A DNA stretch of 64,000 nucleotides. It comes from an uncultured Candidatus Saccharibacteria bacterium (lineage in GTDB: Bacteria > Patescibacteriota > Minisyncoccia > Phycocordibacterales > CAIZLB01). Under the pieces are notes generated by a model. The model saw only the letters and a list, made by a program, of their open reading frames with translations. It had not been told where the DNA came from and did no database searches. Shown piece by piece: positions 9,523-42,280 of the stretch. The translations under genes and the position numbers were made by a program. The stretch lies in assembly GCA_964368945.1 (NCBI GenBank), contig CAYJDM010000002.1, positions 85,386 to 149,385 on the forward strand, read 5' to 3'. Position 1 is the first letter of the stretch. Each line of letters begins with the position of its first letter.

Positions 9523-10026
9523 ATGAAAACAATTGATAAAAAAAACAAGGCAGCCAATATCGGGCAGCGAGGATCTGGAATGATCGAGATCCTCATTGCT
9601 GCTGCTCTCATGGGCGTAATCCTCATCGCCGTCATCAATGTCTATTCCTCTCTGACCGCGCTCTCTCTCCAGAATACCGACAAGATCCAGTCAACGTTCC
9701 TTCTCGAAGAGGGCGTTGAGGCGATCCGGACGATGCGAGATGCGAGCTGGTCCAATATTTCCAATATGACGGTTGGTCAGACATATTATCTGCGCTTCCA
9801 GAGCGGTGCATGGCTGGCAACGACGACGCCTCAGATCGTCGATGACTTCTGGAGAACCGCGACTGTCAGCAATGTCAGCCGGGATGGAAGCTTTAATATA
9901 GTATCGAGCGGAGGGACGGTTGATGCCAATACCCGAAAGGTCCAGATATCGGTTGCATGGGAGGTCAAAACAGGGACAACTACTAGGTCTGTCGATACCT
10001 ATATCTTTAATACATTCGGCAATTAG
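9523..10026 (+). CDS. Pseudopilin / minor pilin.
   Basis: N-terminal RGSGMIEILIAAAL, with E at +5 after the cleavage Gly. Start placed at ATG 9523, after the upstream stop. Confidence 0.6.
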   Translation: MKTIDKKNKAANIGQRGSGMIEILIAAALMGVILIAVINVYSSLTALSLQNTDKIQSTFLLEEGVEAIRTMRDASWSNISNMTVGQTYYLRFQSGAWLATTTPQIVDDFWRTATVSNVSRDGSFNIVSSGGTVDANTRKVQISVAWEVKTGTTTRSVDTYIFNTFGN

Positions 10027-10605: not shown

Positions 10606-12393
10606 ATGAAAAAAAACACATATAGCATCAATAGGCAGAGCGGACAGGTCGTAATGGCCGCCGTGCTGGTATTCATGTCGCTCTCCCTCGTCGTCGTCAT
10701 CGGCATCTCTGCGCCAATCGCAGCGCAGATCAGGAATACTGCAATCGCCCTCGAGACTCGAAAGGCCGTCGCTACTGCCGAAGTGCTCAATGACGATGCT
10801 CTCTACAGGCTCTATGCCGGAAGGACCCTTCCTTCGACCATCGTCCTCGCACTCAATGAATCGACATCCACGGCGATTGTCTCAGACGTAGGGACGATGA
10901 AGCAGATAATCTCAACATCCGTTTCAAGGCAGACGACGCGCACGACCCAGGCTCGATTCAATGCTGGCGGGAGTGCCGCTCCGATTAGCTATGCTTTGCA
11001 TACCGGACAAGGCGGATTTCAGCTGACAGGAGGCGCGCGAGTGAATGGGAATATCTATTCCAATGGAAGCGTCGTCGGCTATGGCGGCGGAAACGTCGTC
11101 GGGAGCGTGACAGCCGCTTCTTCATTGAACGAGACGATAATCACCGATAATACGAATATTGCCGGACTCGTTGGCGGCGTCGATGTCGGAAAGGTGAATG
11201 ATGTGCAGCAGTTGGGACAGAGCTTTACGGTTTCGACATCCACGGCCATTACGACTTTTTCTTTATATATAAAAAAGACCGGCTCTCCCGCCAATGGAAC
11301 ATTGCGCATCTATAATGCCAGCGGAGCCAATGTGGGGACCACTCAGGTCGGCTCAAACGGAGCCTTGTCGGCGGCATCCGTATCTACTGCTTATCAGTGG
11401 GTAGATGTGTATCCGTATGCGCCCATCACCCTTGTTCCCAGCACTACATATTGGATGACATTGGAAGTCCAGGGAAGCAGCGCCTCGAACTACTATACGC
11501 TAGGAATGAATAACAGCGTGTATTCGGCAGGATCCCTCAAGACCAGAGTAAAGACAGGATCGACATGGGCTGGGTACGTCAATGCTTCTCCTGCCACGAG
11601 AGATTTGCTTTTCAGCGCATCGATCGGCGGAGTGACTTTCATTTCTGGAAACAACTGGGATAAATTCAGCATATCTGGCTCCGCGAATGCCGGAACCGTA
11701 AATAGCACCGATGCCGGCGGCCTAATCTATTGCCAGAATGGAAATATGAATAATAAGGCTTGCGATACGAGCATGCCTATTCCCACTTCGGTAGATTTGC
11801 CGATTCAGCAGGATCGCATCAATACTTGGAAGACTCAGGCTTCTGCGGGAACAGTGCGAAATACAAGCTGGACGATCGGCGGCGGAGTCTCTACGAGCAC
11901 TCCGGGCGCTATGAGGATCAATGGCGATCTGACGGTGTCTGGCGGCGCATCGCTTACATTGAATGGGCCTTTGTACGTTACGGGAACGATTACGGTGAGC
12001 GGGGGCACGACGGTGCGGCTGGCTCCCGGATATTCTTCGACTGATGAATTCGTAGTCGCGAACTATGTGCGCCTTACTGGCGGAGGGCAGATTACGGGCA
12101 GCGGCACGGCTGGCAGCTATGTGATAGTCGCCGTCGAAGGAGCCGATTGTCCTTCATCATGCAGCGGTTCGACATATGCCGCCACTACGGATGGAGGAAC
12201 CGCTTCTATGGTTCTCGTCGCTCCGAATGGAACATTGCGAGTTACCGGCGGCGCTGCTCTCAAGGCGGCTATGGCAAAGACGATAATCATGGACGGAGGC
12301 TCAAGCCTGACATATGAAGCCGCCCTTTCGGGCATCACCTTCTCAACCAGCGGCTCCGCAGCCTGGAGCGTCGATAGCTGGAGAGAGATATGA
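10606..12393 (+). CDS. Large PilX-like pilus-associated protein (possible tip or minor pilin).
   Basis: A PilX_N-like hydrophobic N-terminus (GQVVMAAVLVFMSLSLVVVIG) with a Gly/Thr/Ser-rich beta-rich body. It is the last gene of the pilin block. Confidence 0.5.
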   Translation: MKKNTYSINRQSGQVVMAAVLVFMSLSLVVVIGISAPIAAQIRNTAIALETRKAVATAEVLNDDALYRLYAGRTLPSTIVLALNESTSTAIVSDVGTMKQIISTSVSRQTTRTTQARFNAGGSAAPISYALHTGQGGFQLTGGARVNGNIYSNGSVVGYGGGNVVGSVTAASSLNETIITDNTNIAGLVGGVDVGKVNDVQQLGQSFTVSTSTAITTFSLYIKKTGSPANGTLRIYNASGANVGTTQVGSNGALSAASVSTAYQWVDVYPYAPITLVPSTTYWMTLEVQGSSASNYYTLGMNNSVYSAGSLKTRVKTGSTWAGYVNASPATRDLLFSASIGGVTFISGNNWDKFSISGSANAGTVNSTDAGGLIYCQNGNMNNKACDTSMPIPTSVDLPIQQDRINTWKTQASAGTVRNTSWTIGGGVSTSTPGAMRINGDLTVSGGASLTLNGPLYVTGTITVSGGTTVRLAPGYSSTDEFVVANYVRLTGGGQITGSGTAGSYVIVAVEGADCPSSCSGSTYAATTDGGTASMVLVAPNGTLRVTGGAALKAAMAKTIIMDGGSSLTYEAALSGITFSTSGSAAWSVDSWREI

Positions 12394-12407
12394 TAAGATA
12401 GCCTGAT

Positions 12408-12524
12408 AGCAATCAGGGCACCTTCTTGGACCTAAGCCTTGCATACGGCAAAAGAATACTAAGTACTGACTAGTATTCTTTGGCCAGATGCGGGGAGGGT
12501 TCAGGAAAGTGCCCTGATTTTTTT
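12408..12524 (+). terminator. Extended-stem terminator. A 10-bp perfect closing stem (ATCAGGGCAC / GTGCCCTGAT) encloses about 88 nt that contain a 10-bp hairpin. It is followed by T7.
   Basis: Both inverted repeats read directly from the sequence. A T7 run sits at 12515-12521. Confidence 0.5.
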
Positions 12525-12598
12525 GTGCCTGAATCTCAATCTCGGCTCCTCACGCAACCAAAACCGCAAAAAGGCAATCCTGCCCTGGAAATCCGCGC

Positions 12599-24733: not shown

Positions 24734-27700
24734 ATGTCAAAGTTCATTATCTCTACACTCGTTGCATTGCTCGGCATCATCCAGGCATTCGTACCTGCGA
24801 GCGCATTCGCGGCTGCAAAGACGATTGAGGAAATCGGATTGACTCCGAACGATGTAAAGAATCTCACGAAGGACCAGATTCAGGGTCTCTTGGATTCAGC
24901 AACGGTAACGTATGTCGATGGCAAGGAGCCGGCGGCTGATGCGGCGACTCCTCTTCTCCCGAATACGGTTAATTGCTTCGATAACTATTCCTTCGGAAGC
25001 GTTCAGGCAAACCTCGTGCCATCGGTAAGCAGCGCGGTTTCTGGATCGCAGATCACATTCTCCGGAAATATAGTGAATGGCAATGCATATCCGGTAGTGA
25101 ACGGAACCCTTGTCGTGAAGATATTCAAGGCGGCCGGCAATGGCCAGAAGAATATCGATGCGGATGATGTCGTGGATGAATTCAATGCGGTAACGAATGT
25201 GAATCTTCCTGCAAACGGAACATTGCCAGTAAGCGTGGATTGGAAAATTCCCGCATTCTTGGATTCTGGATCATACAAGGCAGTCACATTCTTCGTCGTT
25301 GCGGGAAAGTTCAATCTCCTCGGACTGACTTTCACTGATGACATTGTCGGCAACACCGCTGATTTCTCTGTCACGGGCGAAACCGGCGCGGTTCGATTCG
25401 ACAAGAGCACGGTAAATATGAATGGCGGCAAATTCTACTTCGCAGCATATCCTCCTCGAATCGCAGATGATCAGGTAAAAATCACCGCGACTCTCGTAAA
25501 TACGACATCCGTTGAGCAGACGGTTCCTGTTGCATGGCAGGCATATTCTTGGGATGCACAGCATGAATCCAACTTCATCGAGAGCGATATTCAGACAGTA
25601 AGGGTTCCTGCAAATGGCAAAGTCGAAACAAGCCATACCGTTTCTGATAAGGCGAATTCCGTCTATTATGTGCGCGCAGTCGCTGAATCAAATGGGGTAA
25701 AATCAATCATCGGCACGCGATTCGTTCGGCCTGATGCGAATAAGCTGAGAATCAACTTCCCATCGATTGCGAAATTCCCTCTCGTGAAAGGAGAGAAGAC
25801 GGATATTTTCTCATGCCTACACGCTACGAATGATATGGCTGGACCTGCAGATGGAAAGCTTGTCCTGACGCTCAAGGATAAGGTGGGCAAAGTGATTCAC
25901 TCATATGAATATAAAGGACCGGTAACGAGCAGCATGATGGGGGTCAAAGACAGCTTTGTTCCTGATGCTGATTACGATGAATTGACGCTCAAGGCGGAAT
26001 TGTACCAGGGCGAAGCATTGGTAGATAATGTCGAATTGACATATGACTGCAAAGTCATCGATCCGGCGGCTTGTGCTGACAATGGAATGATCATCAAGAT
26101 CGTGCTTGGCATAATCGCGGCATTGGCAATCGTCTTTATCCTGATACTCGCATTCAAGAGAAAGCCGAAGGTGACTGCTACGAGCGCGGTAATGATGCTG
26201 CTTCTCGCATTCGGCTGGACTGCATTTACGAGCAATACGTCTGCTCAGAATTGGTGGGAGAGCGCGGTATTGCCAGGCGAAGCTCGATGGGAAGGAACCG
26301 CTCCGCGCATGAGCACATCGTGGGGAGGCCAGAGGTCTGAGCTTGAAAATGTCCATATAAAGGTCAGATACAGAACGCAGATCGCAAAAGAATCCGGCGA
26401 GGCATTATTGGGCGGCGAGACATTGACGCCAGGAACAAAGGTTAAGCTCAAAGTGCTTCCGTATGAATCCAATGATATCTACTGGTTCGGTCTGGGAGGA
26501 GTATACGATTCTCCTTTTGGAGAATGGCGAGCCGGATCGACTCCGCCGGCGGCCGGATGTCAGGATAAGGATTATACGAGCTTGGGAATCTCGGGTATTC
26601 CGACCGTGACTTCCGTATATCACAGATATATGTTTTTCGATCTCGTGATGAGTCCTCCGACTGCATCTATCGCGGAAACGCAGAATCTCGATTGCGGCGC
26701 ATTGGTTGGCGGAGTTGCGACATGCAGCGTGGTTGCAGAAGGTCCTGTAAAGGCATCGTTCAAATTCACGCCGACGACTGGAAAATTCTATTATAGCTAT
26801 TTCAATAGAAAGCCATTTGAAGGCCTTGCCAATCCCAAGCCATTGTCTCAGGTTTCTGCAGCAGACAGGGCGGCTTGTTTGGCTCAGACCGAGGAATTTG
26901 GAGGGTATACGGTATCCGTGCCTGAGATTACGAAGCCGTATACGTTCGTTGCCGATGCCGATCCTGAAAACCAGCCGCCGACAGTTCCCGTTGTTACGGG
27001 TACGGGTTGGGCGAAACCTGGCCAATCATATTCATTCAGCTCGGTTTCGACAGATCCAGACGGCGATCAGATACGATATGCAGTTGATTTCGACAGCAAT
27101 GGAATTACGGATACCTCGCTTCCTGGAAGCGGCTATGTAAGCAGCGGCGCGGCGATGTCGACATCAAAGTCATGGGCAGCGCTCGGAACATATACGATCA
27201 AGGTTAAGGCAGAGGATACGCCAGGAGGGCTATCTTCGGGCTGGGCTACTCATCAGGTAATAGTAAGCGAAGAGGATCCATTCAATGGCGTGACTCCTCC
27301 TACGAATAATCCGATCGATGGCAAATGCGTGCCAGGATCAGACGGTTGCAGAACGTCTTGCGGCGATGTCGCTCCGATTGAGCGAGGAAGGACACTAACA
27401 ATTTCAACTCCTGGTCTTTGTAGTGCGGATGCCGTGGCGATGTCTCCCGGGACGACCCTTACTGGCTTTACATGGAAATGCCAGGGAGCATGGCAGACGG
27501 TTCCTCAGAACTGTAATGTAGCTTGCGAAACCGGCATATATTCTCCGATCGCCGGCGCTTGCGCTGATTCGGTGGCCGACTATTGTCCAAATCTAGATGG
27601 AGACCAGACCGATGCAAGCAAATACGATATCGTGAAGGATCCAGCGACTGGGGTAAATCGATGTATGCCAAAGGCTAGCATCAAATACTTCAAGTTCTCT

Positions 27701-27964
27701 CCGGACCAGGCTCTCGAGAATTGTCCGGCATATTGGGATACCGAATTGCCCGATGCATCGCTTAAGTTCAGCACGGTCTGCAAGATAAATGGCGGAGCTA
27801 CCGTTCCGGGAAAGAATCTTCTTCCAGGCGGAGCAGCCACATTCCTGCAGCCGGTAGGCAGACTTCATAGCCTGACATGCGCCATCTCCGACCTTGAAGG
27901 AGTTGCCAAGACCCTCACATCCGTAGCTCGATGCTATAGAATAGGCGAGCAGGTTGAGGATTAG
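24734..27964 (+). CDS. Large (1076 aa) cell-surface protein with a signal peptide, two central TM helices and a PKD-like domain.
   Basis: N-terminal signal peptide. TM pair around aa 460-500 (IIKIVLGIIAALAIVFILILAF / AVMMLLLAFGWTAF). PKD-like segment SVSTDPDGDQIRYAVDFDSNG. Confidence 0.6.
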   Translation: MSKFIISTLVALLGIIQAFVPASAFAAAKTIEEIGLTPNDVKNLTKDQIQGLLDSATVTYVDGKEPAADAATPLLPNTVNCFDNYSFGSVQANLVPSVSSAVSGSQITFSGNIVNGNAYPVVNGTLVVKIFKAAGNGQKNIDADDVVDEFNAVTNVNLPANGTLPVSVDWKIPAFLDSGSYKAVTFFVVAGKFNLLGLTFTDDIVGNTADFSVTGETGAVRFDKSTVNMNGGKFYFAAYPPRIADDQVKITATLVNTTSVEQTVPVAWQAYSWDAQHESNFIESDIQTVRVPANGKVETSHTVSDKANSVYYVRAVAESNGVKSIIGTRFVRPDANKLRINFPSIAKFPLVKGEKTDIFSCLHATNDMAGPADGKLVLTLKDKVGKVIHSYEYKGPVTSSMMGVKDSFVPDADYDELTLKAELYQGEALVDNVELTYDCKVIDPAACADNGMIIKIVLGIIAALAIVFILILAFKRKPKVTATSAVMMLLLAFGWTAFTSNTSAQNWWESAVLPGEARWEGTAPRMSTSWGGQRSELENVHIKVRYRTQIAKESGEALLGGETLTPGTKVKLKVLPYESNDIYWFGLGGVYDSPFGEWRAGSTPPAAGCQDKDYTSLGISGIPTVTSVYHRYMFFDLVMSPPTASIAETQNLDCGALVGGVATCSVVAEGPVKASFKFTPTTGKFYYSYFNRKPFEGLANPKPLSQVSAADRAACLAQTEEFGGYTVSVPEITKPYTFVADADPENQPPTVPVVTGTGWAKPGQSYSFSSVSTDPDGDQIRYAVDFDSNGITDTSLPGSGYVSSGAAMSTSKSWAALGTYTIKVKAEDTPGGLSSGWATHQVIVSEEDPFNGVTPPTNNPIDGKCVPGSDGCRTSCGDVAPIERGRTLTISTPGLCSADAVAMSPGTTLTGFTWKCQGAWQTVPQNCNVACETGIYSPIAGACADSVADYCPNLDGDQTDASKYDIVKDPATGVNRCMPKASIKYFKFSPDQALENCPAYWDTELPDASLKFSTVCKINGGATVPGKNLLPGGAATFLQPVGRLHSLTCAISDLEGVAKTLTSVARCYRIGEQVED

Positions 27965-28298: not shown

Positions 28299-30458
28299 AT
28301 GCAAAGAGATTATCCACTAGAGCGAGTACGAAACTTCGGAATCATCGCCCATATCGACGCCGGCAAGACGACTACGTCTGAGCGCGTTCTTTATTATACC
28401 GGCATGAGCCATAAGATCGGTGAGGTTCACGAAGGTGAGGCCGTAACTGACTGGATGGAACAGGAAAAGGAGCGAGGAATCACCATCACGGCTGCCGCGA
28501 TCACTTGTTTCTGGAACCCTACATATATGGGAACTGATATTTCAAAGCGGCATCGATTCAATATCATCGATACGCCAGGACATGTGGACTTTACCGTAGA
28601 GGTAGAGCGATCTCTCAAGGTTCTCGACGGAGGAGTCGTTGTATTCGACGGAGTTGCCGGAGTAGAGCCGCAGTCTGAAACCGTATGGCGACAGGCGGAC
28701 AAGTACCATGTTCCTCGAATCTGCTTCATCAATAAGCTCGACCGAACTGGTGCATCATTCGAGAAATCATATGCGTCTATCCTAGACCGATTGAATAAGA
28801 ATGCGATCCGAATGCAGCTTCCTATCGGAGAAGAGGCGACAGTAGAGGGCGTTGTTGATTTGGTAAAAATGAAGGCATATCGATTCGAAGGAGAAATGGG
28901 CTCTGACGTTATCGAAAGCGAAGTTCCAGAAAATATGAAGGCAGAAGCCGAGAAATACCGAGCTCAGCTCGTAGAAAAGGCTTGCGAATTCGACGAGGGA
29001 ATGATGAATGAATACCTCGAAGGCAAGCTTGATTTCACAGTTGATCAGATCAAGGCCGCTATGCGAAAGGGCGTTATCGCCAATAAGGTATTCCCAGTAT
29101 TCACGGGAACCGCTCTCAAGAATAAGGGCGTACAGCTTATCCTCGATGCCGTTGTCGATTACCTTCCATCCCCTCTAGACGTTCCGCCAATCACGGGAAT
29201 CGATCCTGAGACTGGAGAGACTATCGAGCGATCCGCATCTGACTCAGAGCCATTCGCCGCTCTCGCATTCAAATTGCAGAACGATCCATTCGTAGGTCAG
29301 CTTACATTCTTCCGAGTGTATTCAGGAACCGTCGAAGCCGGCTCATATTTGTACAATGCAACGACTGGCTCAAAGGAGCGACTCGGACGAATCGTACGAT
29401 TGCAGGCGAATAAGCGAGAAGAAGTAAAGAAGGTATATGCCGGAGAAATCGCGGCAGCCGTAGGTCTCAAGGATGCTCGAACTTCTCATACATTCTGCGA
29501 TGAGAACAAGCCTATCATCCTTGATCCTATCAAGTTCGCAGAACCGGTAGTATCACTCAAGATCGAGCCAAAGACTAAGGCTGATCAGGAAAAGATGGGA
29601 ATCGCTCTCAAGAAGCTTCAGGATGAAGATCCTACATTCCGAGTTTCATCAAATACGGAGACTGGAGAAACTATCATCGCCGGCATGGGTGAGCTCCACC
29701 TCGAAATCATGGTTGACCGAATGAAGCGAGAATTCTCAGTAGAGGCCGATGTAGGAAAGCCTCAGGTAGCATACCGAGAGACTATCCAGGGCGAAGCTGA
29801 AGAAGAATACAAATACGTTAAGCAGTCTGGAGGTAAGGGTCAGTACGGCCATGTTCGAATCAAGATCAAGCCTCTTGCACCATTGGTTGAAGGCGCGAAG
29901 ATCCCTAAGAACGTTCATCGAGAAGAAGGATTCGAATTCGTCGACTCCATCAAGGGAGGCGTTATCCCAATCGAATTCATCCCAGCAGTCGAGAAGGGCG
30001 TCAAGGAAGCCATGGATCGAGGTATCGTTGCCGGATTCGTTCTTACGAATGTATCTTGCGAATTGCTCTTCGGATCTTCTCACGATGTGGATTCATCTGA
30101 AATGGCCTTCAAGATCGCAGGTTCTCAGGCATTCCAGGCAGCTGCAAAGCGAGCCCGACCTGTCATCCTCGAGCCGATCATGAAGGTAGAATGCGTTATG
30201 CCAGAACAGTTCATGGGTGACGTTACAGGCTCGCTTTCAGGAAAGCGAGGACAGATCGAAGGAATGGAAGAGCGAGGCGGTCAGGGTCTCCGAGTCATCC
30301 GAGCCATGGTTCCATTGTCAGAAATGTTCGGATATACGACTGATATCCGATCTATGACGCAGGGACGAGGATCAATGACTATGGAATTCGATCACTACGA
30401 TGTCGTTCCGCCAAACGTCGAGAAGGCTATCGTCGAAGCGCGAAAGGTTACTGCATAG
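28299..30458 (+). CDS. fusA: Elongation factor G.
   Basis: [16 protein letters not shown]1 motif, with full-length conservation. Confidence 0.95.
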
Positions 30459-30480
30459 TCGGTAAGGAAAATTTTAGAGA

Positions 30481-30524
30481 AAAGAAAAAAGCGGCGTCCG
30501 GAACTTTCCGGGCGCCGCTTTGCA
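30481..30524. terminator. Bidirectional terminator after fusA.
   Basis: AAAGAAAAAA, then GCGGCGTCCGGA-actt-TCCGGGCGCCGC (12 bp with one G-U), then TTTG. Confidence 0.7.
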
Positions 30525-30838
30525 TTGGAGGAAGTCGAGAAGGTCATTCCTCGCCTCGGGCCATTCGAGCGGCCAGCGCGGTGATGGCAAGCGTCAGAGA
30601 GGGCGCGATCCAGCGCATTCTCGATGACAAATGTCTTCGCGGATCTGAGAGATCGATATGAACTTTTCGTATTCGGCAAAAATGCAGCATCATTTTTTTC
30701 ACCTCCTTTCGGTTTGTTGTTCTGTGATGCTTTTTTATTCTAGCATGCAGCCGTGGAGTGCGCGGATTATGTAAAAAAAATACGCCGGATCCCATCGCTG
30801 GGGTCCGTCGTTTTATTTTGTATGCCGATCGAATGCGC

Positions 30839-31753
30839 TCAGATCGGAGGTTTTTCAAGGTCGAATGGCGCATCCTCCTTTTCTTTCGCAGCGGCCTCCA
30901 TCGCCTTCGCCGCTGCCTCAGCTGCGATGCGAGCTTCGTTTTCGGCATTCGCTTTCTTGGTCAGCGCGCGCTTTACCTTGTCGAATCGCGTCGCATAGAC
31001 GAAGTATTTCGATTCCTGACAGGCTTCATCGCTGCTGCGTCCTTCCCAAGGAATCCAGGTTGCATAGTACATGCCGGCAAGAGCCTTGCTGAATTCGGGA
31101 CTGCTTCGATCGGCTGCAGAGAGGTTGCTCGATTGATACAATGCACATTTGCCAATATAGAGCGGTATGCCCGACATGAAGCGTCGCTTGGAGCGATAGA
31201 GCTCGGCGATGATCTTGCCGGCCGCTTTCGGCACGATGAGCGAGCGCTGCTGCATGAGGAAAGGGAATTTGCTCAGCGTCAGCGTCTTGATCAAGTGCGC
31301 GCCTGCTTTTCGCATATCGTCGGCAGTCAGGAATTCGAATGCTGTCCAGCGGGTATAATCCGCAACGGTTCCCCAGATTGGGAGATCGTCATTGATTCCG
31401 GGCGTCGTGATATGGTCATTTGCCCAAGCGCTGCCAGCGGTTACTCGTGCGAGATTGCGCGGCGTGCATTTCCAGAGCTGGTCTGGCGTTTTTCTTTTTC
31501 TCTTTGCCAGGCCTGGCGCTTTTTTCGGCCATTTCTTCGCAGGGGGACTGTGGCGGATGAGACAGGTAGTTTTCGCACTCATTTCTAGTCTAGTTTCTTG
31601 TTCGGGTTTTTGTTCTATGTTTGTGAAATTGGCGAACGTCTGTGAGGATCTGTTCTGTCCATAATGGTATGACATTTGAGTCAATCTCTTCCAGACAATA
31701 TATTTTGAGTCAATTTGATTTGACCGATTCATCAGGTTTTCGTTCTTGCGCAT
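30839..31753 (-). CDS. Hypothetical protein, possibly a degenerate phage-type N6-adenine methyltransferase-like protein. Start uncertain; the alternative ATG is at 31582.
   Basis: Basic N-terminal patch, a WKCTPRNL (W-x-TP) motif, and a later TWIPW. C-terminal Ala/Glu/Lys coiled-coil. Preferred over the overlapping Arg/Cys-rich plus-strand ORF. Confidence 0.4.
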   Translation of the reverse strand: MRKNENLMNRSNQIDSKYIVWKRLTQMSYHYGQNRSSQTFANFTNIEQKPEQETRLEMSAKTTCLIRHSPPAKKWPKKAPGLAKRKRKTPDQLWKCTPRNLARVTAGSAWANDHITTPGINDDLPIWGTVADYTRWTAFEFLTADDMRKAGAHLIKTLTLSKFPFLMQQRSLIVPKAAGKIIAELYRSKRRFMSGIPLYIGKCALYQSSNLSAADRSSPEFSKALAGMYYATWIPWEGRSSDEACQESKYFVYATRFDKVKRALTKKANAENEARIAAEAAAKAMEAAAKEKEDAPFDLEKPPI

Positions 31754-31762
31754 CGAGAGGTT

Positions 31763-31826
31763 GTTTTTTTGTAAAAAAATACGGCCTGCATACCGTGAGG
31801 TATGCAGGCCGCGCTGTTGTTTGTTG
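31763..31826. terminator. Bidirectional terminator between pyrF and the downstream hypothetical gene.
   Basis: TTGTTTTTTTGTAAAAAAAT, then GGCCTGCATACC-GTGA-GGTATGCAGGCC (12-bp perfect). Confidence 0.6.
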
Positions 31827-31840
31827 GCGCAAGCGCCTTA

Positions 31841-32644
31841 TCAGCCGGGGAGCCCCATGTGGATCTCCTCCAGTGTGCGCTCAACGGCGCCAAGAGGGTC
31901 TCCGTGCTGGAGGATTGGCCTGCCGACGATGATGCGCGAGGCACCTGCAGCGATGGCTTGCTGCGGTCCCATTTTCCGGCCTGTGGCCTGATTGTCGTCC
32001 CTTACGATTGACCATTCGGGGCGAATTGCAGGAGCATTGTATGAGAATCTGTCTCCGAATTTCTCGCGGAGATTCCCGATATCGGTAGCTGCAGAAACCA
32101 GTCCGCCGATGTCTGCCAGTGCGGCTTCTTTGGAAAAGCGCTCGGCTGCTTGTGCGATCGAGCATCCGTACAGTCTTTGGCAGACCTGCTCCGTATGGCT
32201 TGTCAGCACCGTAATGCCGATGATTTCTGTGGCTGGCAATTCGGCCTGAGCTTTTTCCATAGCCTCAGCGCCGGCGGTGCATACGACGGTCAGCAATTCG
32301 GGATCGAATTCGCGCAGGAACTTGCCGTCTGTCGCGAGAGTAGAATCGATATCGTAGAGCTTCAGATCTGCGAAGACCCCGAATCCGAGATCCCGCAAAA
32401 CCTGAAGCAGGTGCGTACCGTTAGCGCGCAGAAGGGAATTCACCTTAAGCGTTATCCCGGTGCCTTTGAGCTTTTTAGCAAAGGCGACCGCTTGTTTCAT
32501 CGCATTATCGGCGCGATCTTCCCTTGTTGTCGGATCGAAGTCGAGTGCGATGACAAGGCGCTCGCTTGGAGTGAGGTCTCTTTTTCTTATGGACATGATT
32601 TTCGGTATGTTGGGTGTTATGGGGCTATGCGGGGCATTCAGCAT
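31841..32644 (-). CDS. pyrF: Orotidine 5'-phosphate decarboxylase.
   Basis: LVIALDF, DLKLYDIDST (DxKxxDIxxT) and the C-terminal IIVGRPI motif. Confidence 0.7.
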   Translation of the reverse strand: MLNAPHSPITPNIPKIMSIRKRDLTPSERLVIALDFDPTTREDRADNAMKQAVAFAKKLKGTGITLKVNSLLRANGTHLLQVLRDLGFGVFADLKLYDIDSTLATDGKFLREFDPELLTVVCTAGAEAMEKAQAELPATEIIGITVLTSHTEQVCQRLYGCSIAQAAERFSKEAALADIGGLVSAATDIGNLREKFGDRFSYNAPAIRPEWSIVRDDNQATGRKMGPQQAIAAGASRIIVGRPILQHGDPLGAVERTLEEIHMGLPG

Positions 32645-33329
32645 TCAGCAATGCCCAATTGTCCAGCTCCTTTGGCCTGATCGCTCTGGAGCCATTTCGG
32701 CAGTATTCGCACTCAGCTTCGCTGTCCCATGTGGGCATATCGCGTTCCACGAGAGAGACTATCGTCCTGTCGCCAAGTTTCTTTTTGCCAGAACGATTGA
32801 CGATTACGGGAAGAAGATCCTGCACAATGCCGCCCGCGGCAATAATTGCCTGAATATTGAGAGCGAGGCTATCGCATGTGGTGACGACGTCTTCGCCGGC
32901 GAGGACGATTTCTCCTGCTTTGATGCCGGTTTTTTGGAATACCATCTTCTTGTCCGCGCCTTTTCCTTCGGGGATCGTGTATGCCCGGAGACATGGCAGA
33001 TCGTTCGGCCGGAACATTTCGATGTTGCGTGCGATATCGTGAACCAGGGTGATTGCGCCCATGGCCGGCCCGACAACGCGTTGGATTCCATCGATATTCA
33101 ATCCTTCGGCGAGCAGTAGCTTGATCAGATCAAAGGCGATCTCATTCACCAAGGCAGGGTGTTCCAGAACGACTTCGCTGTTAAAGAAGCCGCCCGAGTG
33201 CTTGCCAGAGGTGAGAAGGGCATGCGGCCGTTTCATATTGCCATCATGAACCCAGATGGCGTTCATGCGCTTATATATCTCGAACCATTTCTGGTCGAGC
33301 TTTTGTTTTAGCCTGGCTGGATTATTCAT
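32625..33329 (-). CDS. pyrE: Orotate phosphoribosyltransferase.
   Basis: PRPP-binding motif VLAGEDVVTTCDS. Overlaps the pyrF start by 20 nt, indicating an operon. Confidence 0.7.
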   Translation of the reverse strand: MNNPARLKQKLDQKWFEIYKRMNAIWVHDGNMKRPHALLTSGKHSGGFFNSEVVLEHPALVNEIAFDLIKLLLAEGLNIDGIQRVVGPAMGAITLVHDIARNIEMFRPNDLPCLRAYTIPEGKGADKKMVFQKTGIKAGEIVLAGEDVVTTCDSLALNIQAIIAAGGIVQDLLPVIVNRSGKKKLGDRTIVSLVERDMPTWDSEAECEYCRNGSRAIRPKELDNWALLNAECPA

Positions 33330-33998
33330 TGTCTTGATGTATAGGTTCTGTTTTCATGCTTTAAGCCGCATGATTTGGCCGTCAAAATTGCATTTTGCCC
33401 ATTCTGACTCTGTGAAGTAGGGTATAGCAGTTTGCCCGGGCAAGCAAGTGGAATGGATGTTATCTCGGCTGAGGGACGCACTTTGACTCCTGTCTAATGT
33501 GTGATACTATTTCCCCAACGCATTAAGCGTTTTGTTTCGAATCTTCTCGGTGTTTTTAAGACATCGAAGAGACGGCCTAGATTAGCCTTATTTTAGCAAA
33601 AGCCGCAAGGTAGATGCTGGAAAAAGCGCCAAAATAGCCAAATCAAGTTAAACCGATTGCTCGTGAATGTTGGTACAAACGGCTCAACAGAGGCCTTTAA
33701 TCCAACCTATGGCCCAATCGCCTACAACTGAATAAAGACAAATCACCTCTGCATCACCCCTTTGTTCGAGATTACCCGTCCCGTCATATTGTGAGACAGA
33801 GTGAGATAGTCAGTTTCTTTATCAAAAAGCTGATAATATAGCCGAATAAGCCTTATTTTGAGCCTTTTTTTGTTAAATAAGCCGAGAAGCACTGGAAACA
33901 ATTTTTATTTATCAATTTTGCTCCTTCTTACTAGCTTTTGCCAAGTTAACTGGCATATAAGGGCTAATAATAAGGGTAAATAACAACAAACACTAATT

Positions 33999-35192
33999 AT
34001 GGCAGGAACATTTGACCGATCAAAACCTCACGTAAACGTAGGTACAATTGGACACGTTGACCACGGTAAGACTACTCTTACTGCAGCTATCCTAAACGTT
34101 CTTCACCGAGCGGGTATGGAAGCGACTATTAAGGCTGTAGGAGACATCGACAAGGCACCTGAAGAAAAGGCGCGAGGAATCACTATCTCGCTCTCACACT
34201 CAGAGTACGCTACGAACAATCGACACTACGCTCACATTGATGCCCCAGGTCACGCCGACTACATCAAGAACATGATCACCGGAGCCGCTCAGATGGACGG
34301 TGCTATCCTCGTGGTAGCAGCGACTGACGGAGCTATGCCCCAGACTCGAGAACACGTTCTCTTGGCTAAGCAGGTAGGAGTTCCTAAGATCATCGTTTTC
34401 CTTAACAAGTGCGATATGGTTGATGATGCAGACATGATCGACCTCGTTGAAGCTGAAATCCGAGAACTTCTTACGAAGAACGGATTCGACGGAGACAACG
34501 CTCCTGTTATCAAGGGTTCAGCTCTCAAGGCTCTCGAAGCTCCAGGAGTTGATGACGAATGGTCTAAGAAGATCCTCGAACTTGCTGAGGCTCTAGATAC
34601 ATACATTCCGCTTCCAGTTCGAGAAATCGACAAGCCTTTCCTTATGCCAATTGAAGATATCTTCTCAATTGAAGGACGAGGAACTGTAGTAACTGGAAAG
34701 ATCGAGAAGGGACAGATCAAGGTTGGAGAGGAAATTGAGATCGTAGGTCTCAAGGATACTCAGAAGACTACTGTTACTGGTATCGAAATGTTCAATAAGC
34801 AGCTTCAGGAAGGACAGGCTGGCGACAACGCTGGTATCCTACTCCGAGGCGCGAAGAAGGAAGATCTTACTCGAGGACAGGTTCTCTGTAAGCCAGGATC
34901 AGTTAAGCCTCATACTGAATTCGAAGCTGAAGTATATATCTTGAAGAAGGAAGAAGGCGGTCGACACACTCCATTCTTTACAGGTTACAAGCCGCAGTTC
35001 TACGTTCGAACAACGGACGTTACTGGCGAAGTAACACTTAAGGAAGGCGTTGAGATGGTTATGCCTGGTGATACCGTCACTTTCAAGGTTAAGCTCGTAG
35101 CTCCTATTGCCCTAGAGGACAAGCAGCGACTAGCGATCCGAGAAGGAGGTAAAACTGTAGGCGCTGGTGTCGTTACGAAGATCGTAGCGTAA
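33999..35192 (+). CDS. tuf: Elongation factor Tu.
   Basis: [18 protein letters not shown] and NKCD motifs. Confidence 0.95.
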
Positions 35193-38404: not shown

Positions 38405-38566
38405 TCGTAAGATTGCGAATAAGCGAGAATATAAAAAATATGACGGAGCGCGCAAGCGTTGCGTCCGCCGCGAGACTTCTCTCTCGGCGCCCCTTTCGAA
38501 GCATATCTGCTGATGTGCATCGGAGGGGACTCAGGGAGAGAAGCGATGGTGAAAAACTAGTCACCG

Positions 38567-38600
38567 AAAAGGCTGCCATGCTGGCGGCTTTTTCCTTTTG
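38567..38600. terminator. Terminator after rplB, which breaks the S10 operon.
   Basis: AAAAGGCTGCCA-tgc-TGGCGGCTTTTT, then CCTTTTG. Confidence 0.55.
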
Positions 38601-38628
38601 AGACATTAACTCCGCATTAATCTTTTCA

Positions 38629-38656
38629 TTGACAAAAGATGCTTGGGGCGTATCAT
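38629..38656 (+). promoter_or_regulatory. Promoter TTGACA-16-TATCAT for the PEP-CTERM gene, followed by a C/A-rich leader.
   Basis: Hexamers read directly. Leader: ccaaacccaggtccccagaccccaaacccagaa. Confidence 0.45.
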
Positions 38657-38767
38657 CAGATATGTTACTTTGCTTTGTGTCAATATCTGTCGCGCGCGAG
38701 ACACAAGCAGGGGAACACCAAACCCAGGTCCCCAGACCCCAAACCCAGAATACACAGTACCTAACAT

Positions 38768-39466
38768 ATGAAAACAAGATCCCAATTCGCATTTGCGGCC
38801 CTCGCGGTCGCCTTATGCGCTCCTCCTCAGAAAGCGAGTGCAATCATCAGTATCGCCTACGAAGTTGGTGTCCGCCTCGACGGCAATGCCTTGACTTTGG
38901 CGGGCACGCTGAATGGTGACTACGACCCGGATATCGTCACACCCGTTACGCCCAATATGACGCGCTACGGCGTCGTCTGTTGGTTCGTTGATGACGAACA
39001 TCCGGAAGCGACAATTCCGATTACGGGAATTACATATGCCCATTCTACTTTGCGAAATTCAGGTACCGCATCGTCGCTTGATCTCAACTATTCGGCACTT
39101 ACGTTTTTCCCGGAAGGGTCAGGCGCGCCGGTGGTTGGTCTGTATGACGAATCGAGGGTTAGTCTGACGTCGCAAGTCAATGGCCAGCAGGTGGTCGGAA
39201 CGACCTATCCTCAAGGGACCAAATACGTGGTCTTTGCTGATCAGAGGTTCAGTCAGACGATCGGCGGAGGGCAATATGCGCCGAACAGCGACGGTGAATC
39301 CCAGTTTCTCGACTGGACTTTCGTATTCACGCGCGAAAACGGCTCGTACCTGACGTCTGGTATTCGTGGATCCGTCATGCTGCAGAGCGTGCCGGAACCA
39401 GGCTCGGTCAGTATGCTCGGCATTGCCGCCATCGGCATGCTCCGCATTCGCAAGCGCCGCCTGTAA
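38768..39466 (+). CDS. PEP-CTERM sorting-domain secreted protein.
   Basis: A signal peptide. The C-terminus VPEPGSVSMLGIAAIGMLRIRKRRL has the PEP motif, a TM helix and a basic tail, which is the canonical exosortase substrate signal. GC is about 55-58 percent, against about 45-52 percent in flanking r-protein genes. Confidence 0.7.
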   Translation: MKTRSQFAFAALAVALCAPPQKASAIISIAYEVGVRLDGNALTLAGTLNGDYDPDIVTPVTPNMTRYGVVCWFVDDEHPEATIPITGITYAHSTLRNSGTASSLDLNYSALTFFPEGSGAPVVGLYDESRVSLTSQVNGQQVVGTTYPQGTKYVVFADQRFSQTIGGGQYAPNSDGESQFLDWTFVFTRENGSYLTSGIRGSVMLQSVPEPGSVSMLGIAAIGMLRIRKRRL

Positions 39467-39511
39467 GACACGGCGACGTCCAACCTCAAGCCCGATTCAA
39501 TCGGCAACACG

Positions 39512-39550
39512 GCGGTCACCCTGAAAAGGGGTGACCGCTTTTCTCTTTTT
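39512..39550 (+). terminator. Rho-independent terminator after the PEP-CTERM gene.
   Basis: GCGGTCACCC-tgaaaa-GGGTGACCGC, then TTTTCTCTTTTT. Confidence 0.8.
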
Positions 39551-39607
39551 CGCGATTTCGTATATTTAGAAACATTAACGCCAGATTAAGACACCAGCGA
39601 ATAAATA

Positions 39608-39636
39608 TTGACTTATGTCAATTAATAGTGTTAAAT
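39608..39636 (+). promoter_or_regulatory. Promoter TTGACT-17-TTAAAT, with the -35 box embedded in the palindrome TTGACttatGTCAA. Followed by a long C/A-rich leader of about 235 nt.
   Basis: Read directly. Leader: acacacagcaaaaccccaacacatcaacaccccccacaaaccctcaatcaaaacccc. Confidence 0.4.
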
Positions 39637-39877
39637 CTCGCTAGACGTTTCGTCTCATCTTTGCCTCTGTTCTGACGGTCCAACGACTGGCGGAAAAGAG
39701 GTATTTCATACAAATTGGTTAGTTTTATGGCAAAAAGGCTGCTGAAAGGCGCTTTTTTCATAAAAATAGAGGAAAAAACACACAGCAAAACCCCAACACA
39801 TCAACACCCCCCACAAACCCTCAATCAAAACCCCAAAGGACGGCGAAAATCGTTCCTTGAAAACTTAATACTGAATC

Positions 39878-41995
39878 ATGAAAACCACAACCTCCCAAAT
39901 CCGGGCGGCACTTATCGTGCTGGCCCTATTCTTCGGCTTCTCCCTCACTTCGTGCAAAACACCGAGTGGGCGTCAAGCTTCCGCCGCATCCCCTCAAAAG
40001 GCTGTGGCAACATCCCGTGCAACCGCACGCGATACACGCACTGCTTCCGCCCCGAAAGCCTCCAAAAAGGCCGACAGGGCGATCGCATCGACGACAAAGC
40101 CCATCGCAACGAATAAGTCCCCAATGACGGCCACGGCTCAAAACCAGCGGCCTCCGAAGGCAAAATTCATTGCCGGTCCCGATGATGAATACACGGTAAC
40201 GAAAACTGTCGCAAGACAGGTCAGCGCACCGCGCACACATCCTCAGGCTCCGCCTCTGACCCGAAACGATCCGAATCTATTCCCTGATACCAGCCATGGA
40301 AACATGGTTCCGGATGAGAGAATCCAGGTCGGCGGCGATTGGCAAGGCGGCATGTCCATTGAACTCGCAAGGGCGCTGGGCAAAATCCCATCCGGTCCAT
40401 CAGCTTCAGATATGCCCGACAGGGCAATGCGATCATCGCAAGATGTTCGTCCGCCAGTCGGCGATAATATGCTCGCGCCTCCAAGGTTCACCAAAGAGGA
40501 AGTCGAAAACATCGTTGAAAGCAAATCTGAGAAAAAGCCTGAAAAGAAGGCCGAAAAGACAATCGCAAAGGCAAAGATCGAAATCAAAGCGGCGGCTAAA
40601 ACCGCGGCTCCTTCCGAGCCTGAGAAAGTCGCAAGTCCGACTCCGAAGGAAACTCAGATCGCTTCGGCTCCCGTAGCAAAAGCGCCCGACCCACCGCCGA
40701 TACCGATACCGGCACCCGTGGCTGCAAAACCGCCTGAGATACCAGTGGCTCCGCCACCGCCTCCGGCCGTAGCGGCCATTCCAGAAATTCCCAAGAAAAC
40801 CCCGATCGTAGCGATCGTTCCAGAACCATCTCCCAAACCTCCGGTCGTAGCGACTGTATCAGAATCACAACCCAAAACCCCGGTCGTAGCGACCGTCCCA
40901 GAACCAGCCAAAACGACCCCGGTCGTAGCGGCCAACCCAGATTACGAACCGCAGATGAAGGCTTTTCTCCAAAAGGAGGCCAAATATCTGCGTCTCGCGA
41001 AAGGAGACGGCTTCAATGAGGCGTATATCGTCAGGGCATCCATTCTCACAAAGAAAATGCCCAAATCGGTACAAGGTTCCCAAAACGTCGGGACGCTGCA
41101 TTGCAGCGTCCAGCATTACGGCGAAGGCTTGCCTCTCGGCATAAGGATTTTTCAGGAAAAGCCAGGCACTAAACCCGGCAGTTTCATAACTGAAGGCGTA
41201 AGGCTCATTCCGAGCAATTCGCCCTTTGCGGAAATTCCAGCAGAATTCGAGCGTCCCGCGACTCATTTTGCATACGACATCATCGTCGATGCATCTGATT
41301 CTACCGAGACGTACATTGTCGAAATCGCTTTGGCCAAGGTTGCTCAAAGCATGCGACTCTACCTCCAGCAGGACGGGCAGGATATCGAGGCGCTGAAGAA
41401 GGATTTGAAAGGTGGAATTGCGAAAAACATCATGATTCCCATGCCTGGTCTCGACTGGCAGCCCAAGCCCGAAGTCGTCAAATCGGCGGCTTTACTAAAG
41501 GATGAAACGGCGGCAGCGTTGTTTCCCCCAGAGGTGTTTGCAGACAAAGCCGTGCCGGAACCGGACGGCGATAAGCCAAAGGTGACCGATTCGGCCAGCG
41601 GAGGCAGTCCATTCTGGAATTCCACGAATTCGCCTATATATCAGGTTGCCACAGTCGTTCTCTTTGGGGTAGGATCCTTCCTATTCTTCAAGGGGATTGC
41701 CATGTTCAGGCGTCCCCGGAAGCCGAAAGGACCTGCCGTGCTCGTTGAGAAAATGGAAGCGAAATCCGGCCAGCCTGCCAAGAGTTTGAATTCATGCTTT
41801 AAGGTGGTTGTCCCTAAGCCAATGGGCGCTGCTACTCTGCCCAAGCGCCATGATCCAGGCCTCGGGGTCAGAAAAATGTACACAAGCGATCGTGAAAAGG
41901 ATCAAGAGCCCAGAAGGAAAGGCTTTCCATTCCGAAGCCGCCAGACTCCTGAGTCTAAAGACAGGGCGGAGGATACGGAACCTGTCGTTTCTTAG
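39878..41995 (+). CDS. Proline-rich lipoprotein (705 aa) with a C-terminal TM anchor.
   Basis: Lipobox LTSC after the signal peptide. PxxP/PEIP/PVVATV repeats. C-terminal helix VATVVLFGVGSFLFF followed by RRPRKPK. Confidence 0.55.
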   Translation: MKTTTSQIRAALIVLALFFGFSLTSCKTPSGRQASAASPQKAVATSRATARDTRTASAPKASKKADRAIASTTKPIATNKSPMTATAQNQRPPKAKFIAGPDDEYTVTKTVARQVSAPRTHPQAPPLTRNDPNLFPDTSHGNMVPDERIQVGGDWQGGMSIELARALGKIPSGPSASDMPDRAMRSSQDVRPPVGDNMLAPPRFTKEEVENIVESKSEKKPEKKAEKTIAKAKIEIKAAAKTAAPSEPEKVASPTPKETQIASAPVAKAPDPPPIPIPAPVAAKPPEIPVAPPPPPAVAAIPEIPKKTPIVAIVPEPSPKPPVVATVSESQPKTPVVATVPEPAKTTPVVAANPDYEPQMKAFLQKEAKYLRLAKGDGFNEAYIVRASILTKKMPKSVQGSQNVGTLHCSVQHYGEGLPLGIRIFQEKPGTKPGSFITEGVRLIPSNSPFAEIPAEFERPATHFAYDIIVDASDSTETYIVEIALAKVAQSMRLYLQQDGQDIEALKKDLKGGIAKNIMIPMPGLDWQPKPEVVKSAALLKDETAAALFPPEVFADKAVPEPDGDKPKVTDSASGGSPFWNSTNSPIYQVATVVLFGVGSFLFFKGIAMFRRPRKPKGPAVLVEKMEAKSGQPAKSLNSCFKVVVPKPMGAATLPKRHDPGLGVRKMYTSDREKDQEPRRKGFPFRSRQTPESKDRAEDTEPVVS

Positions 41996-42035
41996 TCCGA
42001 AGCCTTGTTTCGAAATCCGCACACAAAACAACAGT

Positions 42036-42096
42036 CCCGCGTGGCACTTGCTCTGATGACGATCAGACAGGTGCCACCGCGGGGCTATTTTTATAC
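42036..42096 (+). terminator. Terminator after the lipoprotein gene.
   Basis: CCCGCGTGGCAC-23 nt-GTGCCACCGCGGG, then GCTATTTTTAT. Confidence 0.65.
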
Positions 42097-42208
42097 AAAA
42101 AATATGCCCGTCTGCATTAAAAACGCCTCAAAATTAGCCAAAAAACGGCTATTTTTCATAAAAAACTGACCATATGACATCACGGGAAGACCCCTGGAGA
42201 AGCCTCTG

Positions 42209-42236
42209 TTGACATAACTTTGTTTTTTGCTACTAT
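42209..42236 (+). promoter_or_regulatory. Promoter TTGACA-16-TACTAT, which restarts the r-protein operon at rpsS.
   Basis: Consensus -35. The -10 is TACTAT. The ATG of rpsS lies 44 nt downstream. Confidence 0.45.
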
Positions 42237-42280
42237 AACGTGCACTAGCTCAGTTTGGGCTATTATTTTTCGCATAAAAC

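Follow-up and report, generated by a model that had tools for sequence, protein, structure and literature searches.

The S10 leader of Escherichia coli, together with the ribosomal protein L4, provides an example of an autoregulatory leader RNA in a translation operon, and the tufB mRNA of Salmonella is reportedly autoregulated as well (Brandis, 2016, cited in PMC6735719). Leader RNAs of ribosomal protein and translation operons are narrowly distributed and lineage-specific (Fu et al., 2013, PMC3616713). In Proteobacteria, small multigene insertions free of mobility genes have been described between concatenated translation operons, for instance Salmonella bfd-bfr-hopD, placed between str and S10 (Brandis et al., 2019, PMC6735719). 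Here we describe a stretch of 64,000 nucleotides (hereafter the window) from an uncultured bacterium belonging to the Candidate Phyla Radiation (CPR), in which the elongation factor genes fusA and tuf are separated by a group of genes on the opposite strand. An initial annotation of this DNA had read these genes as foreign cargo inserted into the str operon. We consider it probable that the gap between fusA and tuf is instead a fast-changing slot typical of the lineage, which holds native genes for the synthesis of uridine monophosphate (UMP) and an orphan protein that is not a methyltransferase (MTase), as well as the promoter and a structured leader of tuf.

Gene turnover between fusA and tuf

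The left border of the slot is formed by fusA (28299-30458, plus strand), encoding the 719-residue EF-G with the Pfam domains GTP_EFTU, EFG_III, EFG_IV and EFG_C, and the right border by tuf (33999-35192, plus strand), encoding the 397-residue EF-Tu, likewise assigned by Pfam; the S10 operon follows directly after tuf (S10 start at 35247). These coordinates bear out the description of the two genes as split by a 3.5-kb interval with open reading frames (ORFs) on the minus strand. Starting from fusA, the interval contains small49, the gene of an orphan protein (hyp), pyrF and a pyrE-like phosphoribosyltransferase (PRTase) gene. Three of these minus-strand ORFs had been listed before, but the conserved 49-aa gene small49 (30544-30693) had been missed. 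The closest EF-Tu sequences among the GTDB species representatives, at most 88% identical, come from metagenome-assembled genomes (MAGs) of Patescibacteria/CPR with Yonath-, Kaiser-, Adler-, Campbellbacteria or Paceibacterota labels, and the protein-database neighbours of the window EF-Tu bear the same Patescibacteria/CPR labels. The best matches being Paceibacteria-like MAGs, the earlier view of a CPR-type genome is upheld, and by sequence affinity the host is a Paceibacteria-like CPR genome.

The distance between fusA and tuf was compared across the retrieved loci (denoted by L-numbers). In 19 Patescibacteria loci it measures 105-5243 bp, with a single locus below 300 bp, and in several further Patescibacteria loci fusA is not found within 10 kb of tuf; in non-CPR loci where fusA precedes tuf it is, by contrast, 14-238 bp with one exception. 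The gaps in Patescibacteria are filled with unrelated genes on either strand, amongst them response regulators, membrane proteins, alanine racemase and giant hypothetical proteins. The conserved adjacency of the two genes, on which the initial annotation had built, is thus a property of other bacteria, and given the gap sizes in Patescibacteria the premise of a most conserved gene pair is not applicable to this lineage.

Nine distinct loci of the window's clade (EF-Tu 93-98% identical, EF-G 91-94% identical to the window fusA product) carry nine different slot contents. In the window these are small49, hyp, pyrF and a PRTase of type PRT-A; in L095, small49, PRT-A and a second orphan, hyp2; in L092, pyrF and PRT-B; in L003, hyp, PRT-B and hyp2; in L005, hyp, pyrF and a classical pyrE on the opposite strand; in L002, hyp and a classical pyrE; in L001, hyp, a gene resembling aspartate transcarbamoylase (ATCase-like, or pyrB-like), PRT-D and hyp2; in L100, hyp2 alone; and in L098 the slot is empty (470 bp). 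Gain and loss of genes at this position, implied by the earlier reading, is therefore seen among close relatives.

A purely vertical history, in which an ancestral stable arrangement was altered by gene loss alone, would account for the presence of a hyp-family member in seven of the nine distinct clade slots, of the tuf leader in all nine loci and of a 1076-aa gene upstream of fusA common to L003 and L095. It would, however, have to accommodate four unrelated PRTase subfamilies in one slot and in both orientations, with mutual identities of 22-32% or no detectable similarity. Between the PyrF of the window and the copies in its clade, identity amounts to 42-61%, no more than the 44-47% shared with copies from distant Parcubacteria, and the window PRTase is 43% identical to the copy in the sister genome L095. 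These clade values are too low for orthologues given the identities of EF-G and EF-Tu; moreover, the window PRTase is nearer to a distant Parcubacteria copy (L088, 53%) than to that of its sister. We regard gene loss alone as quite unlikely. Judged from these sequence comparisons, replacement in the slot is non-orthologous, and the slot would be a long-standing, lineage-wide break of the operon, the content of which is swapped by recombination within the lineage rather than brought in by one foreign insertion. As a separate observation, a 72-aa ORF between fusA and hyp in L003 (3828-4046) and L004 resembles the C-terminus of a peptidoglycan-binding-repeat protein encoded beside hyp in L002 (10925-11557), and is probably a gene remnant from slot turnover.

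In a rival reading built on the initial annotation, the genes would form a recently acquired foreign, possibly phage-derived island in an intact str operon, with a degenerate Dam-like MTase as well as pyrE and pyrF. The differing gene content of close relatives fits such an origin, as presence/absence polymorphism would be expected of a mobile island (nine contents in nine loci, L098 being empty), and so do hairpin terminators separating the units and genes that lie 3-7 GC points above the window mean. This excess is modest: the GC content, put at about 57% before, amounts to 50.4% over the whole interval, to 52.6-56.0% in the three island genes and to 49.4% in the window, and at third codon positions (GC3) the three genes reach about 61%, the same as other non-ribosomal genes of the window (TIM 58%, T2SSE 58%, PEP-CTERM protein 61%). 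The ORFs between fusA and tuf contain no integrase, transposase or recombinase domain, the window harbors no tRNA or tmRNA gene, and no flanking or att-like repeats were found in 30300-34100. Furthermore, the junction is split lineage-wide, the best PRTase matches come from CPR bacteria and searches with hyp returned neither MTases nor viral proteins, as detailed below. Both observations named beforehand as speaking against foreign cargo were in fact made, namely matches from the same lineage with a fusA-[pyr/hyp]-tuf arrangement in relatives and the lack of MTase similarity of the hypothetical protein. Taken as a whole, this reading appears highly improbable to us.

The terminators had been described as bidirectional elements bracketing the island; we find that three hairpins divide it, while its tuf side is a promoter region. 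The first hairpin (30488-30521), an inverted repeat with a stem of 15-16 bp and fold energies of -29.7 and -24.7 kcal/mol, is bidirectional, being followed by U6CU4 when read on the minus strand and by a weak U-tract when read on the plus strand; it terminates small49 and probably fusA too. The second (30786-30807, minus strand) follows hyp and carries a U8 tract, and the third (31781-31812, minus strand), a strong intrinsic terminator with a 14-bp stem and U7 (-36.7 kcal/mol for the folded segment), closes the pyrE-pyrF unit ahead of hyp. Due to these three terminators the island is made up of three minus-strand transcription units. The promoter of the pyrE-pyrF unit must be located in the spacer at 33330-33482, which is not conserved and gave no blastn match in relatives. 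In the arrangement we propose, the str operon of this Paceibacteria-like CPR clade would end at fusA, tuf and the S10 operon would share a separate transcription unit headed by tuf, and the space between the fusA terminator and the tuf promoter would constitute a recombination-tolerant slot.

The pyrE-like and pyrF cassette

The genes pyrE and pyrF are adjacent in many bacteria, and their products carry out the last two steps of UMP synthesis. In the window, pyrF (31841-32596, minus strand) encodes a predicted orotidine 5'-phosphate decarboxylase (ODCase) of 251 aa, or of 267 aa if translated from the alternative start at 32644. The protein scores 104 bits against PF00215 (OMPdecase; cut-off 27), and in an alignment with the E. 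coli ODCase 1eix the catalytic motifs are all kept, as DLKLYDI (DLKxxDI), LKVNS (with the LKV lysine) and VGRPI (GRP). It stays below the NCBIfam equivalog cut-offs (NF001273, 140.6 vs 193; TIGR01740, 86.3 vs 92.3). The assignment as pyrF in the initial annotation is supported by these results, and the protein appears to be a divergent yet recognizable member of the ODCase family.

The PRTase gene (32625-33329, minus strand; 234 aa) belongs to a CPR-wide subfamily that is paired with pyrF. Its earlier identification as pyrE is supported in part. The best curated model is pyrE_Therm (TIGR01367), and the sole match in the PDB is the orotate phosphoribosyltransferase (OPRTase) 4paw; the protein scores 82.3 bits against TIGR01367, however, where the cut-off is 150.25, and is also below the cut-offs of TIGR00336 (35.1 vs 106.8) and PF00156 (16 vs 26.3). 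The loop binding phosphoribosyl pyrophosphate (PRPP) reads VLAGEDVVTTCDS, in which the acidic pair and the TT are retained and GG is replaced by CD, while the L001 protein has the canonical VVEDLVTTGGS. The PRTase is probably an orotate PRTase. Several points weigh against this view of the cassette: the protein is under every curated cut-off, its PRPP loop has TTCDS instead of TTGGS/T, its specificity for orotate is derived from the pairing with pyrF, and the taxonomic affinity of PyrF was judged from the comparison loci alone.

More than 1000 homologues of the PRTase were retrieved, the best of them 45-55% identical, and all named best matches belong to Paceibacterota, Parcubacteria, Wolfebacteria or the Patescibacteria group. 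A PRTase gene of this subfamily stands directly upstream of an OMPdecase gene in the window as well as in L087-L091, among them loci from Wolfebacteria and further Patescibacteria. The cassette recurs in L088-L091, and two distant Parcubacteria genomes carry it in unrelated neighbourhoods; its recurrence argues that it is a native CPR cassette, conserved in Parcubacteria, and not cargo of foreign origin. The two genes form one transcription unit, as had been noted, but the overlap ascribed to them hinges on the choice of the start codon. The start at 32596, which matches the homologues and is most likely the true one judging by their sequences, leaves a gap of 28 nt.

None of the other genes of de novo pyrimidine synthesis (pyrB, pyrC, pyrD, carAB) was found among the larger ORFs scanned in the 64-kb window, which include those of TIM, PGK, NusA, RecJ, ComEC, SecY, Adk and NDK. 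As no such gene is visible in the window, the cassette probably uses imported orotate. The restriction of this search to the window, along with the ATCase-like gene in the slot of L001, counts against such a conclusion. [quoted passage not shown] Salvage of orotate is probably the economical reading of the cassette: orotate and PRPP would be converted to orotidine monophosphate (OMP) and then to UMP, as family membership and the conserved gene pairing suggest, and for a cell in which the de novo pathway is probably missing this would open a route from scavenged orotate to UMP.

PRTase genes also occur at other positions in Patescibacteria. L021 carries a pyrE_Therm-like PRTase gene between rpsJ and rplC (11986-12597) and L030 a classical pyrE-like PRTase gene in or beside the S10 operon (11568-12269), which hints at a wider association of PRTase genes with the S10 cluster in this group.

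The promoter and a probable leader RNA upstream of tuf

The 669 bp before tuf have a GC content of 40.5% and hold no credible ORF, in agreement with the initial annotation, which had set them down as a 670-bp noncoding tract; they contain, however, a promoter and a structured RNA that is probably a leader. When the sequence upstream of tuf was aligned from five relatives, long invariant blocks were apparent although the adjoining genes are non-orthologous. A conserved extended -10 promoter is located at 33483-33510 on the plus strand (TTGACT, 16 nt, TGnTACTAT). The clade consensus reads TTGAC(T/A)-16-TGnTA(C/T)TAT, and its position is equal in L092, L095, L098 and all aligned relatives. It is the only conserved promoter-like site on the tuf strand upstream of tuf; in each of L092 and L098 a single weaker site that is not conserved lies on the plus strand downstream of it, and a consensus scan of the window detected no promoter-like site on the tuf strand in 33822-33998.

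Immediately downstream of the promoter follows a structured RNA core of about 310 nt (33513-33821, plus strand), which is supported by invariant blocks, agreeing folds and covariation. It comprises a 5'-terminal hairpin (33517-33531) followed by a U-rich run, continues with a long second hairpin (33540-33572), a variable hairpin (33573-33639) and a central domain closed by long-range helices (33642-33736), and ends with a 3' domain containing the invariant UACCCGUCC (33737-33812) and the U-rich GUUUCUUUA tract (33813-33821). The sequence of the variable hairpin is wholly different between genomes, with a GAAA tetraloop in one version, and the hairpin is missing in two. The distal leader (33822-33998) extends to the tuf start codon and includes a conserved block (33861-33919) and a hairpin or palindrome, UUGCCAAGUUAACUGGCA (33938-33955). 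From promoter to tuf the leader measures about 490 nt, with the same layout in all relatives.

The folds computed independently by minimum free energy for eight sequences recover the same helices, and the folding z-score for L002 is -4.1. In the MAFFT alignment of the central domain 92.8% of the cells are paired and six pairs show double changes; none of 500 shuffled alignments reaches these values, and slid partners pair in 17-38%. A model-fitted alignment of nine sequences raises this to 94.1% of cells paired and eight double-change pairs (16 cells), with pair 32-122 occurring as GC, AU, CG and UA. Invariant G-U and U-G pairs identify the plus strand as the RNA strand. It counts against the structural argument that the covariation sample consists of eight to nine related sequences in which most helices are invariant and thus uninformative.

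A covariance model, R1, which covers the central domain only, scores 101.8 bits in the window and detects the element in every member of the clade, including L098 and L100, which have no pyr genes. The element therefore belongs to tuf and not to the island. Neither nhmmer nor R1, with filters switched off as well, found it upstream of tuf in L007-L086 or L101, and the model gave no hit in Patescibacteria farther removed or in bacteria of other groups. In the window no Rfam family reached its gathering score, and relaxing the threshold to E<=5 for 30300-34200 yielded nothing but noise; Rfam together with ARAGORN identified no tRNA, tmRNA, RNase P, 6S, SRP or ribosomal protein leader RNA in the 669-bp tract. 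By sequence and predicted structure the RNA is an undescribed structured element with no counterpart in Rfam, which probably serves the tuf-S10 operon as its leader.

Its low GC content and the lack of an ORF conserved across relatives would also be expected if the tract were a neutral spacer or decayed coding sequence that contains nothing but promoters. Against this, the leader is 83-85% identical between relatives and window as compared to 71-78% at third codon positions of tuf, and invariant blocks of 30-60 nt persist while synonymous sites of tuf are 61-78% identical. A neutral spacer is likewise disfavoured by compensatory changes and by the fact that, from genome to genome, one position is taken by hairpins unrelated in sequence, and one-nucleotide indels in loops exclude a coding reading. 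We consider a neutral or decayed tract barely credible. A short ATGGCCCAATCGCCTACAACTGAATAA frame was also rejected as a gene, being open-ended or devoid of an ATG in relatives. An origin of replication (oriC) was considered on account of one TTATCCA-like box and dropped, as there is neither a cluster of boxes nor a change in skew.

The core could alternatively be an independent gene for a trans-acting small RNA (sRNA) of about 310 nt that starts from a promoter of its own and stops at the GUUUCUUUA tract; tuf would then be expressed from another promoter that the consensus scan missed. The strong promoter and the U-rich tract after the 3' domain are in keeping with this possibility, which weighs against assigning the core to the tuf transcript, and the deletion in L003 of the sequence from just past the tract to the next conserved block indicates that the core behaves as a module. 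However, no GC-rich stem abuts the U-tract, conservation runs on as far as the tuf ATG, and no second promoter between core and tuf is conserved, the sites in L092 and L098 being weaker ones particular to each. In addition, tuf always follows directly after the element, in the same orientation. We find a separate sRNA doubtful, though a serious alternative.

As a leader of tuf, the RNA would be transcribed from the promoter at 33483-33510 as the first ~490 nt of the tuf-S10 transcript. Its 5'-terminal hairpin might protect the 5' end of the mRNA or act as a promoter-proximal attenuator, and the structured core might bind a protein or ligand and thereby tune expression, in analogy to the S10 leader and to tufB autoregulation. 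By this analogy, the RNA most likely works in cis, as a leader through which mRNA stability is set and/or tuf-S10 expression is attenuated or autoregulated. On inspection, GUUUCUUU could base-pair with AAAGAGAC, which makes up the 3' strand of the second hairpin, and might possibly form an alternative structure.

A more far-reaching proposal is that the ~310-nt core represents a new class of large cis-regulatory RNA controlling the tuf-S10 superoperon, with hyp/hyp2 as a dedicated partner and the synthesis of the translation machinery perhaps coupled to pyrimidine supply. The hyp/hyp2 genes are confined to the clade of the leader and are nearly always encoded beside it, hyp2 being divergent from the leader promoter. 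A link between the protein family and the RNA would follow from this shared clade restriction and adjacency. We rate this proposal as unlikely.

Some further features of the region were recorded. An AT(T/A)AGCCTTATTTT motif occurs twice in the leader (33581-33594 and 33846-33859), the first copy inside a window-specific expansion of the variable hairpin, and (A/T)TA(A/G)GCC-like words recur in the distal leader of relatives. The tuf genes of L007 (~8330-8390), L008 (~9850-9910) and L009 (~9840-9900) each have their own promoter of the type TTGAC(A/T)-N17 with a -10 element, immediately followed by a short GCG-containing hairpin and a U-run similar to the 5' hairpin of the window; tuf transcripts of the class may generally carry such a promoter-proximal hairpin. 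In more distant Patescibacteria, the tuf promoter is immediately preceded by a conserved ORF of about 95 aa (L008 9555-9845, L009 9533-9820, L018 4006-4287) with the motif ...EWGL...LYQAILVRSL.ILSE.E..E.D.L...D.TTPEDV..FL..KI..F...., which is absent from the window's clade.

Orphan proteins, neighbouring slots and known systems

The hypothetical protein hyp (30839-31582, minus strand) is a basic orphan of 247 aa with an isoelectric point (pI) of 9.8; across the family the pI is 9.5-9.9. The ORF called mechanically continues to 31753 (304 aa), and the initial annotation had adopted this span. Since every homologue begins at or after M58 and the 57 extra codons overlie a conserved noncoding region, we place the start at 31582, and a length of 247 aa is on these sequence grounds the most likely one. 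A set of 5.8 billion clustered proteins contained only five homologues, and when 1.84 billion representatives were searched with a profile, nothing outside the family was returned. No relatives were detected in 185,579 GTDB species genomes, and the sole match in a metagenome scan was a contig already among the comparison loci. Pfam, NCBIfam, PHROG, PADLOC and PDB sequence searches gave no match, and no phage or virus match was found in the IMG/VR scan, by tblastn against INPHARED, in PHROGs or in BFVD (Foldseek).

The Dam-like reading of hyp had been based on a W-x-TP motif (W-K-C-T-P) and a TWIPW string. Both strings are indeed present, but in an alignment of six sequences the TWIPW position reads T-[WKMR]-[IM]-P-W, with only T, P and W invariant, and over the two strings together the invariant residues reduce to W, T and P-W. 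Motif IV, (D/N/S)PP(Y/F/W), was not found in the family alignment, which lacks even a PP dipeptide. At a maximum E of 1 the only Pfam match is Phage_TAC_6 (E 0.11), neither Pfam nor NCBIfam yields an MTase family (such as PF05869, PF05063, PF02086 or PF01555) at this threshold, and no MTase appears in the results of a PDB sequence profile search. In the AlphaFold2 (AF2) model, a disordered, K/R-rich N-terminal tail precedes a core of the order beta-alpha-beta-beta-alpha-beta, and a long helix forms the C-terminus; this does not appear to be a Rossmann arrangement. Its mean pLDDT (predicted local distance difference test) score is 61, with about 70-85 in the core; the low mean counts against conclusions drawn from the model. 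The best 50 listed Foldseek matches in the PDB and BFVD include no MTase and none with E<=0.001 for this model, and the top ones, pairs of aspartokinase ACT domains (E 3e-3, TM 0.23), are not significant. We reject a Dam-like or N6-adenine MTase on account of the missing profile match and the missing motif IV; the model, too, appears not to be of the Rossmann type. The model gives a weak indication of a ferredoxin/ACT-like core, and a role in binding nucleic acids or small ligands would be a guess.

The second orphan, hyp2, present in the slots of L001, L003, L095 and L100, is homologous to hyp (hhalign probability 95%, E 2.6e-8; L100 copy by hmmsearch, 1.7e-17), and by these searches the two constitute a family confined to one narrow clade. 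Upstream of hyp, a conserved region (31583-31780, minus strand) is 72-85% identical to L001, L002, L003 and L005. It contains two ATTGACTCAAA repeats (31675-31685 and 31704-31714), 29 nt apart and found nowhere else in the window, and a nearly invariant 40-nt block of the 5' untranslated region (CAGAACAGATCCTCACAGACGTTCGCC...); it may be an operator or leader of hyp.

Between fusA and hyp, small49 (minus strand) is preceded by a strong AAAGGAGGTG Shine-Dalgarno site and encodes 49 aa with a basic N-terminus and a hydrophobic helix at the C-terminus. By tblastn it is 73% identical in L095-L097, with 14 synonymous and 14 non-synonymous codon differences and 28 nearly invariant C-terminal residues; Pfam and PADLOC gave no match.

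Variable content is also seen at neighbouring positions. Between rpsG and fusA, the window has a gene (24734-27964, plus strand) for a protein of 1076 aa that is secreted or sits in the membrane and shows a weak PKD domain; this protein is 75% identical in L003 and 48% in L095, whereas L098 and L100 have TPR and other proteins instead; this difference among relatives marks a second variable slot. A third lies between rplB (L2) and rpsS (S19) at 38405-42280, where the window has genes for a PEP-CTERM protein (38768-39466) and for a 705-aa protein with no assigned family (39878-41995) and the relatives have other genes (L001, L092, L098, L100) or none (L002, L095, L101). Directly upstream of rpsS, a stretch of 72 nt (42209-42280, plus strand) is 100% identical in L095, 94% in L002 and 82-84% in L100/L101, and may be a second conserved leader, for the distal half of the S10 operon. 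Just downstream of rplB, a 77-nt element (38472-38548) is 95% identical in L001 and 86% in L095.

A false lead is thereby removed, as the locus appears to contain neither a Dam-like methyltransferase nor a foreign island in the str operon. With Dam, MT-A70 and phage N6-adenine MTases hyp shares only the two short strings W-x-T-P and T-W-I-P-W, and it differs from them in that a profile match and the motifs I and IV are missing and the predicted fold is apparently not of the Rossmann type. The predicted order of secondary structure elements in its core is that of ACT/ferredoxin-like domains such as the regulatory domain of aspartokinase; hyp differs in adding the basic disordered tail and the long C-terminal helix, and as the match is non-significant we do not claim membership.

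The cassette resembles canonical PyrE/PyrF in that PyrF passes the Pfam cut-off, the best model and sole PDB match of the PRTase are OPRTases and the genes are adjacent; it differs in that the PRTase falls into a divergent CPR subfamily and the window ORFs scanned show no pyrB/C/D or carAB. This bears on how nucleotide metabolism is patched in the tiny genomes of CPR bacteria, where UMP could be made from scavenged orotate by such a PRTase-PyrF pair.

As in the bfd-bfr-hopD insertions, genes unrelated to translation and free of mobility signatures lie between translation operons at this locus, and the downstream operon needs its own promoter. In contrast to those insertions, the break here separates fusA from tuf within the classical str operon and is the norm for a whole CPR class, and the content varies even at 93-98% EF-Tu identity. 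The textbook fusA-tuf pair would thus be routinely uncoupled in one class of CPR bacteria, its junction serving as a hotspot at which genes of UMP synthesis are swapped within the lineage.

The most useful by-product of the analysis is the conserved, undescribed structured RNA before tuf-S10, with a promoter, boundaries and structure that are testable; to our knowledge, CPR bacteria have yielded very few regulatory RNAs. It differs from the autoregulatory leaders in having no sequence or covariance match in Rfam and in being much longer (core ~310 nt, leader ~490 nt), but has in common with them that a structured RNA restricted to a lineage is placed after the promoter and ahead of the first gene, and it contains a U-rich tract with a possible function as attenuator.

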